DNA of 64,000 nt, taken from NCBI GenBank assembly GCA_000004985.1, contig GG738898.1; one strand, 5' to 3'. Of this stretch, positions 1,874 to 19,868 are shown one piece after another. The notes beneath the pieces are model-generated. The model saw only the letters and a program-made list of their open reading frames with translations, was not told the origin of the DNA and did not search any database. Both the position numbers and the translations under genes were made by a program. How positions within the stretch are numbered: the stretch's first letter is position 1; the number at the start of each line of letters is the position of its first letter. The DNA is from Naegleria gruberi (lineage: Eukaryota).

Positions 1874-2173
1874 GACATGAAAAGGGTAATACATAAATTC
1901 TAATTGTCTGTACATGCCATTCATTAGCCATAATTTCAAAGATGTCATTTGCCAAAGTCCATTCATTCAATAAAACCACTCTTTGAAATCATTTGGAATG
2001 CTCACTGTAGATGTATCCGTTGTGAATCACATATCCCACCCAAAAATCTTCAATACCTTTATAATAATTTTCCAAGATCTCATCCCAATTCTGAATTGTT
2101 TAACATTTTCACTTCTAGAACGAAGCAATTTCTAGCTAATGAACTTGGAAATTGCAAAGAACTTAAAAAAAAA

Positions 2174-4640
2174 ATGTCTTCATCATCCACCACGCGAATT
2201 GTTATTGGTGATGATTTTGGAGGCGATAACGACACGAAGAACAACAAGAATGGATCATCATCATCGGATGAATCCACATCAGAATTACATGATTTGGCAC
2301 AGATTCTTAGGCTCATGTTGATCGCCGAGAATGAAAATGCCTTTAGGGATGTTAATGTTGAAACTCTTGAACAAATGATCATGATGAATGATGAGAGGGA
2401 TTTGATTGCGAGCTTTGAGATGGTGAGTGGAATGAGACCAAGTTCTAGGGTGAATGTTCAACAAATTAAAGAGGAATATAAGAAGAGTAAGAAAATTCCT
2501 TCTTCTTCTACTCTTAATAATAGTGATAGTATTATTATTGTTGATGATGAGGAGAAGAGCAAGACGGATAACCTAGTTGTGGTTGAAAATCAACATCCGA
2601 TTGCTGATGATTCTATTGAAATTATAATGGAAGATTCTGGTGTAAGAATTCCAGAACCACCAGTATTGGAAGTGGAACAAATTCCTATCGCTGTTCAAAT
2701 GAAGTTGAGAGTGTTAAAGTTAAAATTGAACGATGCAGAACTTTTGAAGGAATATTCAGATCATCAACTTGCACAAGTATTGGCAGAACATGAAAATAAT
2801 GTGCAATCTTCAGCTGATTATATCATGCAACAGTATGTCAAGAAGACTGTGCAGAGTACTCTATCCGATAGTGATTCTGAGGACACTGGTAAATATTCAC
2901 AATTCACAAAGGATGTTTTGAGAAAGAGATTGAAAATGGGTGGATTTACCGAATATGAAAATGCAACTGATGAAACGCTATCTATTCTGCTTGATGTTGG
3001 AGGTGGTGATGTTGAATGTGCATTGCAGAATATCAGAGGAACAAATTCAGGAACACCTAATGTTATTCATACTGCAAGATACATTTCAGATCCTAATTTA
3101 CCATGGGACAAAAATCCAACAAAACCAATAACGGAAGAGGGTAAAGAGGCATTACAAAAGGAAGGAAGATCTGTAACCACCATTAATCAACTTCCTTATG
3201 ATACTCTTGAACATGTAAGTTTTAATTCATCAAAATTTGGTTGACACTTTACATAGGTTTTTGAATATTTGGGAAGAAAAGATGTTCTGGTTTCGTCCTC
3301 TGTAAATCAATATTTCAATAAGGTATCAGGCTCTGATTATTTTTGGACTACTAAACAAGAAAAAGGAAAAGCTGGATTGATTGACAATTACGAAATGGAA
3401 AGATATAACACCTTTACAAAAAATCAAACACATTACGGGAATTGGAAACTTTGGAGATTAGATAATTTATTTTACACAAAAATTAAGCAACCACCATATG
3501 TTACCACAGAAAAAGAAGTGACAGAAGAGTCACCAATAATAGAATTAGAGGATGGAAGACCACCATTCAAACAAAAGTATGCTAAATACAGAAAACAAAA
3601 ATTGATTAGAGAAAGAGTTGATATAATAGAAAAGAAAATACGAGATAGCAAATTTAATGAACGACAAAATGTTGGATATGAATTTGGAGAGCATGTATAC
3701 AGATCTTGGATTGGATTTTTAGTGGTACTGGCAATTTCAGCCATTATAGGACTTATATTAGTCCCACTTTCTATGGACGAGTTTATTCCAAACGATATTG
3801 GCACCTACTATTGGTTGATTTCATGGTTGAGTCTTGGTGTTATCACAATTCCTTACTTTTACATAATGTTATTCCATCACTCACACAGATTTGATTTCTA
3901 TCCTATTTGGAGTAAGAGACAGTTGAATGGTGAGGAAAGAATGGATCATGGAGGTGAAATGTTCATTCTCTTCTCTTCAACATGGACTTGGCTTCCATAC
4001 ATTTTCCTTGTTGCAGGTCTGAAATATGCAGTCTATGCGGAGCAACCAATATTGAGCTATATTGCCATTCCAGGGTACGTGTTGGCCATGATGTCTTTCT
4101 TTTGCAGTGCACCAACTTTAGGATCAACGTAAGTTTTTCTTTGTTTGTGTGAAATAACACCCTCAAAGGTTAAAAGGTAGTGATAAGGAGCGAGCAGCAT
4201 TCTTTATTTCTTCATTCTTCTATGGAACCATGTTACTTTCCCTGCAGGTATTCCTCATATTACTCTTTGCTAAAATTGATGGCTTAGAATATGCACTCAA
4301 TATTCCATTCTCAATAGTGTTCATTCCAGGATATGTTTCGTTATTGTGCTTCCCAATGGGATTTTTCTTCACTGCCTTTTTTGCCATGGTAATGGGATCT
4401 GACAGTTGGTGGTCAGCATTATTGTCAGCTTCAGGTTTTGGATTTGTTGTAGCACTCGTTATCAGTCCTCTCTTAATTACAGCTCCATTTGTGGCAGCTG
4501 TTTTGGACTCGTTCATTCTCCAATCCATTTTCCCATTCGTTGCGATCTTTTCCATTACCTATGGACTGGGTATTATAATTCTATGCATTGCTTTGTCTGT
4601 TGTTTGCTTCATTATGTGTGTTTGTAGAGATTATGATTAA
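2174..4640 (+). CDS. multi-pass membrane protein with Ser/acidic N-terminal cytosolic region (possible UBA/CUE-like helices); join(2174..3214,3257..4128,4169..4640)
   Basis: Three track ORFs (1949.., 3269.., 4230..) join through two micro-introns, GTAAGT...TTTACATAG (3215..3256, 42 bp) and GTAAGT...CAAAG (4129..4168, 40 bp). Both are phase-consistent and remove in-frame stops. The likely start is the ATG at 2174 in an aaaaaaaaaATG context. The C-terminal half is strongly hydrophobic with an internal duplicated TM module (AIPGYVLAMMSFFCSAP vs FIPGYVSLLCFPMGFF). Confidence 0.5.
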
Positions 4641-5088
4641 ATTATTGAAATCTTTGTTTCAGCATCAATTTATTTGGAACGTTTCAACTTGATGCCTTAA
4701 AATATCTATTTATGACATTACACAGTATTTCTAATAGTTGTGAAGAATAACACTCTGGAAAGAAAGAATAATCAAGGAAATCAGAGGAATCAAGCCGAAT
4801 TCTAAACCTTAATTACCCATTGTTGTGGATAGGGTCGTGTTGCCAACTCTATTCGAAACAGCACACACAAATTATTCAATTTATAATTGAAATTTATCCA
4901 TAGATATTTATCAGATCAAATCTGATTACATTGCCGATTAATGGTGGAGAAACCTGAACTATTCAACGAAACTAGTCAATTCAAAGATTATTCTCAATCA
5001 GATCCAAAATTTGCCATTTATCTCTCATGTCAACATTGTGTGATATAATTTCTAACATGTCATTACACTTTGAGATTCGACTTTGAGA

Positions 5089-6054: not shown

Positions 6055-8052
6055 TCATTGTAAATCAGAAACATAGGTATTCATGGGCAATTTGCAGACT
6101 CCTTGTTTTTCCAAATATATTTCCTGATTGGCTCTATATCTTGGTGTGAAAAGAAATGAAAGTTTTTCATTCGATTTGATGGCATTAAAAGATGTTTCAC
6201 TCAAATGAACTTGTCCTGGTTGACCTGTTGCTTCTATTAATTGTGTTACCAAAACATCACTTCCAAACAAGTCATATGTTCTCTTCATATGTCCAACTAC
6301 AGCTGCTGTCACTCCTCTATGTGAGGTGTGAATACCAATTCTAACCTGTAATGAAGAATCTCCAATCAGATCTGAATTTTTCGAAACCAATTGTTCCAAT
6401 TCTTGAATCATTGACAATCCTGCTCGAACGCAACACATTGTTCCATTGGTACTTGGTATTTCATTTGTGGGTGAGGTTAACATGTTATTTACATTGGAAT
6501 TTGTCTTGGAAATTTGTTTCTTATTATTAGTGGATGAATCATTATCCAATCCAGAAGCAACAAAATAACAATCACCAATAGTCTTGATCTTTTCCAGTGT
6601 TGAATTATGTTGTTTCGAATAAACAATATCATCAAAGCATGAGAAAATATCATGCAACATATGTACAACAATTGAAGGTGATTTTCCATTGGCAAGCTCT
6701 GTAAAACCCACAATATCACAATACATCATTGTGCAATTCTGTAACTCATCAATGACCTTCTCTCCTGCAGTCAACCGATGAACAATATTCTTTGGAAAGA
6801 TCTTTTCCGTAATTTTAGTAATTTGCTCCTCATGTGTAACCATTGATTTGGTATCTCTCACAAATGCAACAAAAGATGATTTCTTACTGATTGGATCAAT
6901 AATTTCTGAAACTCTCAATTCAATTGGAATGGGTTTTCCCTCTTTAGTTTGACCTTTCACAGATCTAACACAATCTACGACTCGTTTCTCTCCGGTTGTC
7001 AAGTATCTCTTCAGGAAATCATCATGGTTCATTCGAATTTTAGGTGTGCACAACATTTTAACATTCTTTCCAATGACTTCCTTTTTAGAATAGTGAAATG
7101 TGGCAGTGGATGCCGAATTGAATATTTGAATAGTTCCCTGTTCATTGATGGAAATAATTGGAATGACTGAAATCTCTGTAATGGCTTCTCCAAATTGAAT
7201 AGATGCCAATTTCTTGATATCTTCCTCACTTTGTTCTAATTGGTTAATGTAGGCAGCAAAGTGAAGTTGTTCTAATTTTCTAAAAACCATCATTTTCAAC
7301 TTGATTGGGAATGCTTTCTTTTGTAAAGTGTTTTTTCCATTTAGGAATCGTGTTTTCATGACTTCTTTCTTTCTTCGTTCCTTTTCTTGTTGACTCACAA
7401 GTACATATGGAATTTTCAAATCTTTCATAGATGTTGACAAGCTCACTGACATGTTCAAATCCAATGATGTATCACCAATGAAATCTTCAATGGCTCTCTT
7501 GATTTCCATGGTTGATTCATGAGATAATAACTCACTCAAATATTCTCCCATGACTGCCAGAGAATAAAATCCAAACACTTCCTCTGCCTGATTATTAAGA
7601 TATTCAATAGTGAGATTGCTATCGAATACAATAATTGGACAACCACACGACTGAAACTGTTCTACCAAATCGTTCAGTAATGAGTATTCCTCAAGAGTTG
7701 TAATTACAAATGCCTCCTCTTCCATTTCATTTCTCTCTGCCTCTGAAGTGCTATCAGTACTGTATTCGGATGATTTATAAGTGCTCGAATAGTTGGATGT
7801 TGACGCAATACTGGAACTATTACTGATTGTACTGTTGGTCTTGTTTAGTTTGCTCAACATTCGAGAGCTTATACCTCTGGAATTGTTGTGTTGTAGCTTT
7901 GCTTGTAAGTTTGGTTTCGAATTGAATTTTGAAGAGCTGACATTGCGTTTGTTTAGTGTTGCCAAGGAGTGTGTGTTTTGATTGGCGACCTCATCTCCAT
8001 CATTATCATTAGTTGTTGGTTTGATAGGAACTAGCTTTTGTTTGCTGGACAT
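6055..8052 (-). CDS. PAS-PAS-class III nucleotidyl cyclase (adenylyl-cyclase-like specificity residues, transition-state residues degenerate)
   Basis: 665-aa intron-less ORF with ATG at 8050..8052 (minus). It has an N-terminal Asn/Ser-rich low-complexity region, two PAS-like blocks (IIVFDSNLTIEYLNNQAEEVFG and IQIFNSASTATFHYSKKEVIGKNVKML...FVAFVRDTK), then a cyclase domain with MMYCDIVGFT, KIKTIGDCYFVASGL and RIGIHTSHRGVTAAVVGHMKRTYDLFG. Confidence 0.85.
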   Translation of the reverse strand: MSSKQKLVPIKPTTNDNDGDEVANQNTHSLATLNKRNVSSSKFNSKPNLQAKLQHNNSRGISSRMLSKLNKTNSTISNSSSIASTSNYSSTYKSSEYSTDSTSEAERNEMEEEAFVITTLEEYSLLNDLVEQFQSCGCPIIVFDSNLTIEYLNNQAEEVFGFYSLAVMGEYLSELLSHESTMEIKRAIEDFIGDTSLDLNMSVSLSTSMKDLKIPYVLVSQQEKERRKKEVMKTRFLNGKNTLQKKAFPIKLKMMVFRKLEQLHFAAYINQLEQSEEDIKKLASIQFGEAITEISVIPIISINEQGTIQIFNSASTATFHYSKKEVIGKNVKMLCTPKIRMNHDDFLKRYLTTGEKRVVDCVRSVKGQTKEGKPIPIELRVSEIIDPISKKSSFVAFVRDTKSMVTHEEQITKITEKIFPKNIVHRLTAGEKVIDELQNCTMMYCDIVGFTELANGKSPSIVVHMLHDIFSCFDDIVYSKQHNSTLEKIKTIGDCYFVASGLDNDSSTNNKKQISKTNSNVNNMLTSPTNEIPSTNGTMCCVRAGLSMIQELEQLVSKNSDLIGDSSLQVRIGIHTSHRGVTAAVVGHMKRTYDLFGSDVLVTQLIEATGQPGQVHLSETSFNAIKSNEKLSFLFTPRYRANQEIYLEKQGVCKLPMNTYVSDLQ

Positions 8053-8504: not shown

Positions 8505-9725
8505 TTAAAGATTGCTATAGTAATTTTCATAATAATCATCAACATTCTCATAGCTATAGATATACTGAGAATCGGTAAAATCTTCCTCCCTCTGACTGTC
8601 ATCCAAATAATCTTTAAATACATTGAGAAATGGCTCAATGTTTCCATCTGGATTATGACCTTTCTTTGAGTTGTGATCTTCAATAATGGCAAAGTAAATT
8701 CTATCGAAATAACCTTCATACTTTTCCAGTTGAGTTTTAAAAGCTTTTGCCATCTGATTAGGGTTATTCTTAAAGGCCCCACATCCAAACGCAGACAATA
8801 CCAAATTTCTAACACCATTCAAAATGGCCACCTTGAATATTGCCTCAATAGTTCCATTGTTTCGTCCATCAATTTTTTCTGTATTTTTCGATTTGTTTGG
8901 TACAGCAGCTGCAGTAATGACATCCAATAATCTTGGAACTTGCAAGAGTGGATAACCTTTTGCTTCGCACCCTCTGAAAAACAATACATTTGGTGAGAAG
9001 CATGCACTCTCATGCCCAATAGGATAGCTCCACTTTCTATGTTTATCCAATTGATCAACCTTATTATCCAAACATTGATACAAGTTAGATCTTCTGAATA
9101 GATTTTCCTCCTGAGCTCCACCTATTTTCATTCAAATAACTTGGTTATTAAACTACTTACAACCTGATTGATAACCACCTCCAGGAGTATTTGGATTGGC
9201 CATATTGAGAATGGCTACTCTCTCATTTTGCATCTTTCCACTCTTTACCAATTCATCCTGGATCTTGAATGCAACATCCACACAATCTCCATTAATTACC
9301 AAAACTCTAGTCTTTTCCTGAATACTATTATCAGAAGAATTCAATGTAGGAATCACCTGCCCCTCATTTCTAATAAACAGTGTTCCAACACTCGACTGAA
9401 TCATCAACTCTTCCTTCAATGAAACCTTTTCTACAATTTCATCATCATCAATTCGATTTTTAGAATTTCTATGATTTTTAAAATTGTACAAATAGTATTG
9501 ATCCCTACAAATATCAATCGTTTGTCTCTGAACAAGTATTCGGAGCCTTTTAATTTTCTTATAATCAGCCTTTTCTAGACAATCATCATATTGATTTCGG
9601 AATTGAGAGGGATCATAGGGATAGGTATTAAAAGTTGAATGTTTCTTGTGGAAATCATCAACTTGAAAGAAAGAGGTGGGACAATTCGAGTGTTTTTTGG
9701 TGGAGAAATTGTTGGAGGTGATCAT
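8505..9725 (-). CDS. bacterial-type poly(ADP-ribose) glycohydrolase / DUF2263 macrodomain protein; complement(join(8505..9121,9161..9725))
   Basis: Two track ORFs join through a 39-bp intron (minus strand GTAAGT...AATAG, + coords 9122..9160). Spliced product carries the PARG signature [34 protein letters not shown] (GGG-x3-G-x2-AQEE). ATG at 9723..9725. Exon lengths sum to 1182 nt, in frame. Confidence 0.7.
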
Positions 9726-9842: not shown

Positions 9843-9885
9843 GCGTCGATGGTTTAGTGGTAGAATACGGCGTTGCGGTCGACGC
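9843..9885 (+). other. tRNA-Gly-like 5' half folded back on its own acceptor strand (tRNA-derived remnant or minihelix, not a canonical tRNA)
   Basis: GCGTCGA-TG-GTTTAGTGGTAGAATAC matches the acceptor stem plus D-arm of tRNA-Gly. After ~30 nt it runs straight into TCGACGC, the exact complement of the acceptor stem. No T-arm (GGTTCGA) is present. Confidence 0.25.
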
Positions 9886-10644
9886 AGTCAGAAGTAAATT
9901 TTTAGATAGCTGTATGCACTCTGCTCTTACTATTTTAGAAATCAGTTTCATGCATGTATTTACGTAAATGGGCAAATTTTTAGGTATTGAATAAGTATAA
10001 TTATTGAAAAAATAATCTCGGCTTGATCCTCATTTTTTACTGAAATAGTCCACCTCAAAAAAATTTTGAAAATGCATTTCATACTAAACTGCAAAAAGAC
10101 TACAGCACCACAGGTTCCCAAGTTGTCTCCAACCTCAGTACTGATGTGGCTCGACGATGCTTAACTTCTCAAATCGGACGGGATGAGGTGCATTCATCGT
10201 GATATGGCCGTAGCCATCCATTACATTAAAATATGCAATTTCAATACGTTTTACAATTTTGCAACAATGGTAACAACCAAATTTTGAGCTAATTCGTTTA
10301 AACTGTTGTACCCACCACCAAAGGAATAATAAAATATTGTAATTGAATATTCTATTCAATATTCCTTTTTCTTCCTTGCTTCCTTTTCGCCAGAAGGAAT
10401 TTTATGGCTTTTTTAAACCACCGTACATAAAAAAATAATTTGCCGCTCTTTTTGCACTCCAAAAGGCAAGTTGAATCTTAACTCTCGCATGATAAGCAAG
10501 TTGTATTGTTTTACTGTGTAGTTTAGCACAGTACTGCGGTGCCGGATTTTCTTCGAAGGCATGACCACAATGAGCTCATACCAATCAATGTAACCCAACA
10601 CAAACCTTTCGAAATATTCAACAACAATAGAAAAAAAAAATATC

Positions 10645-17881: not shown

Positions 17882-19868
17882 ATGCCGCCAAAAAAAAGTA
17901 AATCTGTTGCTGTTGTTGATAATGAAAATTCTTCATCACCAACCAAGAGAGTTTCCTGTGCAAAGAGTTTTCTTTTTTCTCATGATGAGAGAGGACACAT
18001 CTGGAGGAATTTAATCAATTGGTACGATAATAATAAGAAGGATTTACCTTGGAGAAAAACAATTAAAAGTGCCGATGATGAAGATGATGATGTAAAGGCT
18101 ACGGAAGAACTTCATCAGAGAGCCTATGAAGTGCTGGTGAGTGAGATTATGTTGCAGCAAACTCAGGTAGAAACAGTCAAGACTTACTTTCTCAAGTGGA
18201 TGAAAAGATTTCCGACAGTTAAGGATTTGGCTGATGCTACTGTTGATGATGCTGTTGGAATTTGGAGTGGTCTTGGTAAGTTTTATTCAATGATTTATCA
18301 ATATTAATTTGAATATATATTTAACTATTTAATTATTGCCAATAATATTAAATATATTAAAATTGAAACTCTTTGGAAAATTAATTTATATTAATATTAA
18401 TATTATAATAGGATATTACAGAAGAGCCAGATATTTGTACAATGCTGCAAAGTATATAGTGGAAAAGATTAACAAACCAATTAAAAACGAGGAAATAATA
18501 TCCGATGATGAAGATGATGATGAGGAAAAGAAACGAATCATTTACAAATTACCAGACAATGTGAAGGATTTAATGCAATTACCAGGTGTTGGAAGGTATA
18601 CTGCTGGAGCTATCGCTTCCATTGCATTTTCAAGGACTGCCTCTGTGGTGGATGGTAATGTTTTTCGTGTATTTGCCAGATTAAAGAGGATTGAGGAAGA
18701 TATTGCAGTTAACAAGACAGCCAATACTGTATTTTGGCCAATGGCAGACAATTTAATTCAACACTATAGAGATATTGAAGATACAGTGCTGGAGAAGGAA
18801 GATTTGGAACTCAAACATAGATACAATGTGACTGGAGATTTTAATCAGGCTGTTATGGAGCTGGGAAGAACAGTATGCATTCCAAGAAATCCTAAATGTA
18901 CAGAATGTCCTCTTGCTGAGGTTTGTGAGGCAAATAAGGCATTGGAAAAGGAGGAAATTGCCACTGTTGAAATTTATCCAGTGAAAAACAAAAAGACCAA
19001 AAAGAGAACTCAAGTTGTTTCATGTTGCATTTTCTATAAGGAGGGAGATGTTGATAGTTGCCTCTTTGAAAAACGACCAAAGGAGACTCTATTGGGTGGA
19101 ACGTGGCATTTTCCATTTGTTATCATTCAAGATACCAAAGCAGAGGAAGAAGAAAATGAAGAAGATAGTGAGGATGAAGAGGGATCTAAAAAGAAGAAAC
19201 CAAAAAAGCAAGCCAAAAAGACTAAGGCAACAACAAAAGCAGCAGCCTCCTCATCTGAATCAGAACATTTTATCAAACTGAAAGAATTTCTTGTGAAGGA
19301 GGGATTTGTTCAAGACAAGTCGATACCTTTCGAATATCATGCCAGTGTGGATCATGTATTTACTCATATCAATCAGACAAATCATATTTACAGTTGCAGT
19401 GACAAGTATCTGATAAAGGATTTGGAAGATTCAAACAGTGAAGAAGATCAATGGAAGTGGTTTGCAAACTCACAAAGAAAGAGCCAAGGTATTTCAACTG
19501 TTGCCTCAAAGATTTTCAAACAATTCAAAAAGACTTTCAAGAATCAAGATGCTTCACCAATCACTCCTCCAAAGGTCAGATTCAAGACTAAATCTCCATT
19601 CAAATCAACAAGTGCAGAGACAAAGGAAGAAAATTCAGAATCATCTAGTTCTGATGAAGAAGTAATGAAGGATGATGAAGTTGTGAGGATAAGTAAACAG
19701 GAAGTAAAAGAGAAAGTCAAAGATGAAATTAAGCAAGTCAAGATGGAAACTAGACTGTCCAAAAGAGTTGCTAAAAGAACAAGTGAAGAATCAGCCAATC
19801 AATCTGCCAATGAAACACCATCTAAGAAGAAGAAACAAACCAGCATTTCTTCATTTTTCAAGAAATAG
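17882..19868 (+). CDS. mutyh: MutY/MUTYH adenine DNA glycosylase homolog with Lys/Ser-rich C-terminal tail; join(17882..18275,18412..19868)
   Basis: Exon 1 ends ...VGIWSGLG. After a 136-bp, ~90% AT intron (GTAAGT...AATAG, 18276..18411) exon 2 continues YYRRARYLYNAAKY, restoring the MutY W-GLGYY-RAR motif. Downstream are a HhH-GPD block (LMQLPGVGRYTAGAIASIAF), a Cys cluster (CIPRNPKCTECPLAEVC) and a NUDIX-like MutY C-terminal domain. Total 1851 nt, in frame. Confidence 0.85.

Follow-up and report, generated by a model that had tools for sequence, protein, structure and literature searches.

The prototype of the bacterial-type poly(ADP-ribose) glycohydrolases (bactPARGs) is TcPARG of T. curvata (3SIG, 3SIH, 3SIJ), in which a ribose cap formed by the Asp261-Arg268 pair makes the enzyme an obligate exo-glycohydrolase. 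In DrPARG of D. radiodurans (DRB0099, 5ZDA-5ZDG), the cap arginine is replaced by Thr267, and the enzyme has endo as well as exo activity (Cho et al. 2019). DrPARG also removes ADP-ribosylation from the 2′-OH of RNA. Both the mechanism and the motifs that define the family have been described (Rack et al. 2020, Cho et al. 2019), the G[A/V][F/Y] motif of the diphosphate loop being defined in Rack et al. 2020. Among eukaryotes, bactPARGs occur in every supergroup but Plantae, with examples in filamentous fungi, Adineta vaga, Monosiga, Bigelowiella and N. gruberi; the latter has up to seven bactPARG genes, three of them with an intact GGG-X6-8-QEE motif, and also has recorded PARPs (Perina et al. 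2014, PMC4245714). 'Some protozoan species' are listed in later papers among the eukaryotes with bacterial-type PARGs (Cho et al. 2019).

Here we describe a locus at positions 8505 to 9725 of the window, that is, of the whole 64,000-nt stretch of Naegleria gruberi DNA that was analysed. This locus is very probably a two-exon nuclear gene for a bacterial-type PARG, with a PAR-hydrolysing mechanism inferred from the family. Since the gene model is public and multiple bactPARGs of N. gruberi have been on record since 2014, the finding is already known and carries little weight as a discovery; it does confirm that a catalytic motif interrupted by a 39-nt intron, and the intron itself, can be recovered from raw sequence.

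Gene Structure and Public Record

The open reading frame listing of 8505-9725 contains two minus-strand ORFs in the same frame, 9153..9725 and 8505..9131, which the gene model joins across a short predicted intron:

9161..9725, minus strand: exon 1, 565 nt, from the ATG at 9725 to the first base of Cys189; its product is the N-terminal helical extension, the first macrodomain strands and PGGGYQSG(C)
9122..9160, minus strand: predicted intron of the spliceosomal type, 39 nt, GTAAGTAG...AAAATAG, phase 1, GC 23%
8505..9121, minus strand: exon 2, 617 nt including the TAA stop at 8505-8507; its product is (C)GAQEENLF..., the remaining macrodomain and a conserved acidic Tyr-rich C-terminal tail

The full intron, 9160..9122, reads GTAAGTAGTTTAATAACCAAGTTATTTGAATGAAAATAG. 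It has GT...AG ends, with the consensus donor GTAAGT and the acceptor ATAG, and its GC content is 23%, compared to 35% for the coding sequence and 33.5% for the window. Removing it joins GGT T|GT GGA, so that the codon of Cys189 is split in phase 1, and gives a coding sequence of 1182 nt for 393 amino acids, in which the exon-exon junction 9161|9121 reads …CAATCAGGTT|GTGGAGCTCAGG…. A retained intron would bring an in-frame TAG two codons past the junction, ahead of the QEE glutamates, and QEE is therefore reached only by splicing. The initial annotation had given the coordinates and the 39-bp intron exactly, as the excision of 9160..9122 yields the 393-aa frame, and its claim that splicing builds the GGG-x3-G-x2-AQEE signature agrees with the presence of this signature only after intron removal. 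The peptides that it placed at the exon ends were right apart from the cysteine, which is incomplete in exon 1: this exon ends with GGGYQSG and one base of the Cys codon.

Over all 393 aa, the spliced protein matches with 100% identity a 'predicted protein [Naegleria gruberi]' (XP_002672409.1, EFC39665.1, D2VUB9, NAEGRDRAFT_72608). The public model lies on a 310-kb scaffold and has the same exon-intron structure, intron included, and PF10021 is already recorded for D2VUB9 in the protein collection. In this collection, there was no other sequence at least 90% identical to the window protein, and no sequence identical to the 393-aa product was found in Logan or ENA. A lookup of genomic loci by exact product for the N. 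gruberi proteins P0001 and P0003 returned none on record, and a literature search for the accessions of the window gene found no citing paper. From its intact motif, we infer that the gene is one of the three intact-motif N. gruberi bactPARGs of Perina et al. (2014), the main text of which gives no accessions.

Family, Catalytic Signature and Fold

The initial annotation had named DUF2263 and TIGR02452 as the families to search, and the spliced protein scored above the curated cutoffs of both, with E 7.9e-27 and 94.9 bits (cutoff 23.5) for PF10021 (PARG_cat_microb, formerly DUF2263) and E 8.3e-41 and 140.3 bits (cutoff 50) for TIGR02452 (NCBIfam). In a Pfam scan at E <= 0.01, PF10021 was the only match, and the canonical PARG family PF05028 was not matched. 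A sequence search of the PDB returned only bacterial-type PARGs, namely 3SIG of T. curvata (8e-17) and 5ZDA with related entries of D. radiodurans (~1e-15). The two motifs that carry the family assignment are encoded as follows:

9105..9182, minus strand: coding region of the PARG catalytic signature, interrupted by the intron, G182-G183-G184-YQSGCGA-Q192-E193-E194
8766..8786, minus strand: diphosphate-binding loop, G301-C-G-A-F-K-N307, which contains the G[A/V][F/Y] motif

In the spliced protein, the signature has the form GGG-X6-8-QEE with X = 7. The alignment to TcPARG and DrPARG is ungapped through the splice junction, where the counterpart stretch in the PDB is PGGGFLSGAHAQEE, and the consecutive glutamates E193 and E194 are aligned with Glu114 and Glu115 of TcPARG. 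E194 is the residue at which the alignment to the E115A mutant 3SIJ departs from that to 3SIG, and it thus lies opposite the catalytic Glu115. The diphosphate-binding loop is aligned with GCGVFGN in TcPARG and GCGVFRN in DrPARG. Across 84 homologues, there is no variation at G183, Q192, E193 or E194, and the GCGA(F)..N loop is nearly invariant.

An AlphaFold2 model built with the homologue alignment (pLDDT 91.7, pTM 0.92) has helices at residues 17-75, strands from residue 77 on and an alpha/beta core. When this model was compared with the PDB by Foldseek, the TcPARG entry 3SIH came first (1.1e-16, TM 0.77 on the target), followed by DrPARG and then by generic macrodomains, and no canonical PARG structure was among the top 50 matches. 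The profile of the 84 homologues matched TcPARG over nearly the full length, from residue 2 and with the N-terminal extension included (E 4e-48). Together, the model, the Foldseek search and the profile describe a macrodomain fold with a small N-terminal helical extension and without the canonical accessory domain. This bears out the first reading of the locus as a compact microbial PARG fold rather than a canonical one, with PF10021 as the sole Pfam match and TcPARG and DrPARG as the top structural matches.

TcPARG, which belongs to the same Pfam and TIGR families, is the best match in both sequence and fold. It shares with the window protein the GGG-X6-8-QEE motif with the aligned catalytic Glu, the GCG[AV]F loop, and the macrodomain with its N-terminal helical extension. 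However, the identity is only ~25%, and the window protein is ~115 residues longer, owing to a longer N-terminus, an insertion at ~83-135 and the acidic Tyr-rich C-terminal tail; unlike that of TcPARG, the window gene is eukaryotic and intron-bearing. DrPARG, with the same family assignment and motifs, ranks second in both structure and sequence. The canonical eukaryotic PARGs (PF05028; human, Tetrahymena) share the catalytic signature and the proposed mechanism with the window protein, but the latter lacks both their accessory domain and their tyrosine clasp.

C-Terminal Region

The alignments to TcPARG end at FAIxD, which corresponds to E336/D337 of the window protein, and the cap segment with Asp261 and Arg268 lies beyond the alignable part. 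Seven residues past E336/D337, in a register that is not established, stands G343 or H344 and not an arginine. In what appears to be the place of the TcPARG ribose cap, the subfamily has a conserved tail of its own, DHNSxKxHNPxGNxxPF, which in the heterolobosean proteins is followed by an acidic Tyr-rich end that is confidently placed in the AlphaFold2 model. A ribose cap is not needed for membership of the bacterial-type PARGs, because DrPARG, a genuine member, is without it. As the C-terminus is unlike that of the two solved bacterial enzymes, the exo or endo mode and the substrate range of the window protein are a question for specialists.

Proposed Activity and Substrate

In the mechanism that we propose from the family, the macrodomain cleft of the protein made after splicing of the 39-nt intron would bind the terminal ADP-ribose of a PAR chain, the GCGAF loop (301-305) would strain the distal ribose, and E194, the counterpart of TcPARG Glu115, would protonate the leaving group of the ribose-ribose O-glycosidic bond. 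A water molecule would then resolve the oxocarbenium intermediate, and ADP-ribose would be released. In the cell, the enzyme would act as one of several paralogous N. gruberi bactPARGs and would reverse the PARylation made by the N. gruberi PARPs. To our knowledge, no heterolobosean bactPARG has been characterised so far.

It is possible, but rather unlikely, that the fold and the chemistry are as proposed and that the physiological substrate is ADP-ribose linked to the 2′-OH of RNA or to another ribose, rather than protein-bound PAR. Bacterial-type PARGs also remove ADP-ribosylation from the 2′-OH of RNA, and protein PAR may therefore not be the sole or main substrate. The enzyme would then, for example, detoxify RNA that had been ADP-ribosylated by toxins of the bacteria on which this amoeba feeds, and the set of paralogues would be a defence or housekeeping repair module. 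The unusually large bactPARG family of N. gruberi is in line with such a role, as is a C-terminal region that differs from those of the characterised TcPARG and DrPARG. However, nothing specific to the window protein points there, no toxin or immunity genes are linked to the gene within the surrounding 22 kb, and the classical substrate is supplied by the N. gruberi PARPs. Moreover, activity on RNA is compatible with PAR hydrolysis, since the same bacterial enzymes cleave PAR too.

Hydrolysis of PAR remains the preferred reading, and it is improbable that the protein instead binds ADP-ribose or PAR as a reader macrodomain or serves as a regulatory pseudo-enzyme. Several of the N. gruberi bactPARG paralogues do have degenerate signatures and an uncertain function (Perina et al. 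2014), but the window copy keeps GGG-X7-QEE, both glutamates and the GCGAF loop, which are invariant or nearly invariant family-wide.

Predicted Splicing of the 39-nt Segment

The removal of a GT...AG segment restores both the reading frame and the homology, as is expected of a U2-type intron. The excision restores GCGAQEE, a string common to five of the six heterolobosean relatives, the remaining one (L005, an environmental contig) having GSGAQEE. From its boundaries, the restoration of GCGAQEE, the public model and the related genes, the 39-nt intron is predicted to be spliced out, and TTTAAT within it is a possible branch site. A donor 3 nt upstream (CAG|GTTGTA, 42-nt intron) was also considered; it has a poorer donor sequence and would remove the conserved Cys, and it was dropped in favour of GTAAGT, which yields the GCGAQEE of most relatives.

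It is very improbable that the 39-nt segment stays unspliced and that the locus is a disrupted gene, a pseudogene of two ORFs or an assembly artefact. Such a reading would fit the very small size of the intron and its length divisible by three. However, the ends of the intron are the canonical GTAAGT...YAG, its GC content of 23% is typical of non-coding sequence, its excision gives GCGAQEE exactly and without gaps relative to the homologues, and all conserved residues are kept in both halves of the gene. In addition, GT-AG introns interrupt the same signature in related Naegleria genes, and the window contains a second candidate mini-intron (42 nt, GTAAGT..ATAG).

Intron Positions in Naegleria Relatives

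In the N. lovaniensis gene (L001, 6001-7446), a 79-nt GT-AG intron interrupts the signature at GGA G|GT TGT GGA, 3 nt upstream of the position in the window gene. In a Naegleria-like gene of environmental origin (L004), which is 79% identical to the N. gruberi paralogue, a 57-nt intron (259-315) lies at TGT GG|A GCT, 4 nt downstream of it. In three Naegleria genes, the signature is thus interrupted at three different points that fall within 7 nt of each other (phases 1, 1 and 2), and there is no intron at the signature site in either of the two Willaertia genes or in L005. None of the orthologues or paralogues compared (N. lovaniensis, L004, Willaertia, L005) therefore has an intron at the same position as the window gene. 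The position is thus not under strict conservation, and the shift is no argument against splicing.

The three near-coincident positions, which are a small new point of this analysis, reflect either sliding or repeated gain, and these non-identical introns provide a small case for the debate between sliding and recurrent gain. A broader conjecture, which we regard as doubtful, is that the PARG signature is an intron hot spot in Naegleria, where introns would have slid or been gained repeatedly, and that the subfamily would act mainly on non-protein ADP-ribosylation, such as RNA modified by toxins of prey, over the PAR made by PARPs.

A further intron, of 128 nt, splits the diphosphate loop of the N. 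lovaniensis gene (SAFG|CGAF), a site at which the window gene is uninterrupted. In the heterolobosean-like environmental sequence L005 (protein P0007), a single in-frame TGA lies at ~4868-4870, a position occupied by Gly in most close relatives (RNI*SIEAILKIA). The frame is intact for ~100 codons past this TGA, which may be a sequencing error or be read through, or the gene may be a young pseudogene.

Relatives and Origin

Relatives with 44-52% identity to the window protein are a second N. gruberi paralogue, the N. lovaniensis protein, the products of two Willaertia magna genes and sequences from two environmental contigs. JGI metagenome contigs scanned with the heterolobosean alignment gave only relatives of at most 43% identity and no added intron information. 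In a neighbour-joining (NJ) tree of 84 homologues with 100 bootstraps, the heterolobosean relatives and the window protein form one clade in 100 of 100 bootstraps. Support for the internal nodes of this clade is 7-58%, and that for its sister group 20%. Since Naegleria and Willaertia share a single clade, any transfer from bacteria, and the gene family itself, must be older than the split between them. The clade may be either ancient or acquired, and the tree does not resolve its placement relative to Balamuthia, Adineta, Anaeramoeba, pandoraviruses and bacteria. Only two of the up to seven N. gruberi bactPARGs fall into the heterolobosean clade here.

Bacterial contamination or a very recent horizontal acquisition is effectively refuted: although the family is mainly bacterial and many relatives lie on long human-gut metagenome contigs, presumably bacterial, the gene has an intron, its GC content (35%) is like that of the window (33.5%), its neighbours are eukaryotic and include a 5S rRNA gene, and its relatives in N. 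lovaniensis and Willaertia magna, which are further heterolobosean species, join it in the clade with 100% NJ support, all of which upholds the original description of a nuclear gene.

Genomic Neighbourhood

The gene is flanked by the following features:

10097-10215, minus strand: complete 5S rRNA gene (Rfam RF00001, 105 bits, full model)
6055-8052, minus strand: PAS-PAS-adenylate/guanylate cyclase, 665 aa, with two PAS domains and a cyclase catalytic domain; the immediate downstream neighbour
18336-19868, plus strand: MutY-like DNA glycosylase (HhH-GPD, HHH, EndIII 4Fe-4S and NUDIX_4), ~9 kb from the PARG gene

The 5S rRNA gene is on the same strand and lies ~370 nt upstream of the PARG start codon, so that the promoter region of PARG has little space next to a Pol III gene. 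Nothing points to a functional link between the MutY-like gene and the PARG gene. Other eukaryotic neighbours are a WD40 protein and a PDK1-like kinase with a PH_3 domain. No second PARG copy was found in the window by tblastn, and no PARP or other ADP-ribosylation gene was found among the ten long ORFs scanned with Pfam in the first ~23 kb of the window.

Upstream of the PARG gene, at 9843-9886 on the plus strand, lies a tRNA-like stub. It has a perfectly paired 7-bp stem that resembles an acceptor stem (GCGTCGA...TCGACGC) and a D-arm-like element, TAGTGGTAGAAT, but neither an anticodon arm nor a T arm. It scored 19.6 bits with the Rfam tRNA model, below the gathering score of 29, and ARAGORN found no tRNA. 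The stub could be the remnant of a tRNA or a hairpin formed by chance.

The second candidate mini-intron, at 3215-3256 on the plus strand (42 nt, GTAAGT...ATAG), joins in frame the ORFs 1949-3244 and 3269-4132, neither of which has a Pfam match. This candidate suggests that mini-introns of ~40 nt with a length divisible by three may be ordinary in the N. gruberi genome.
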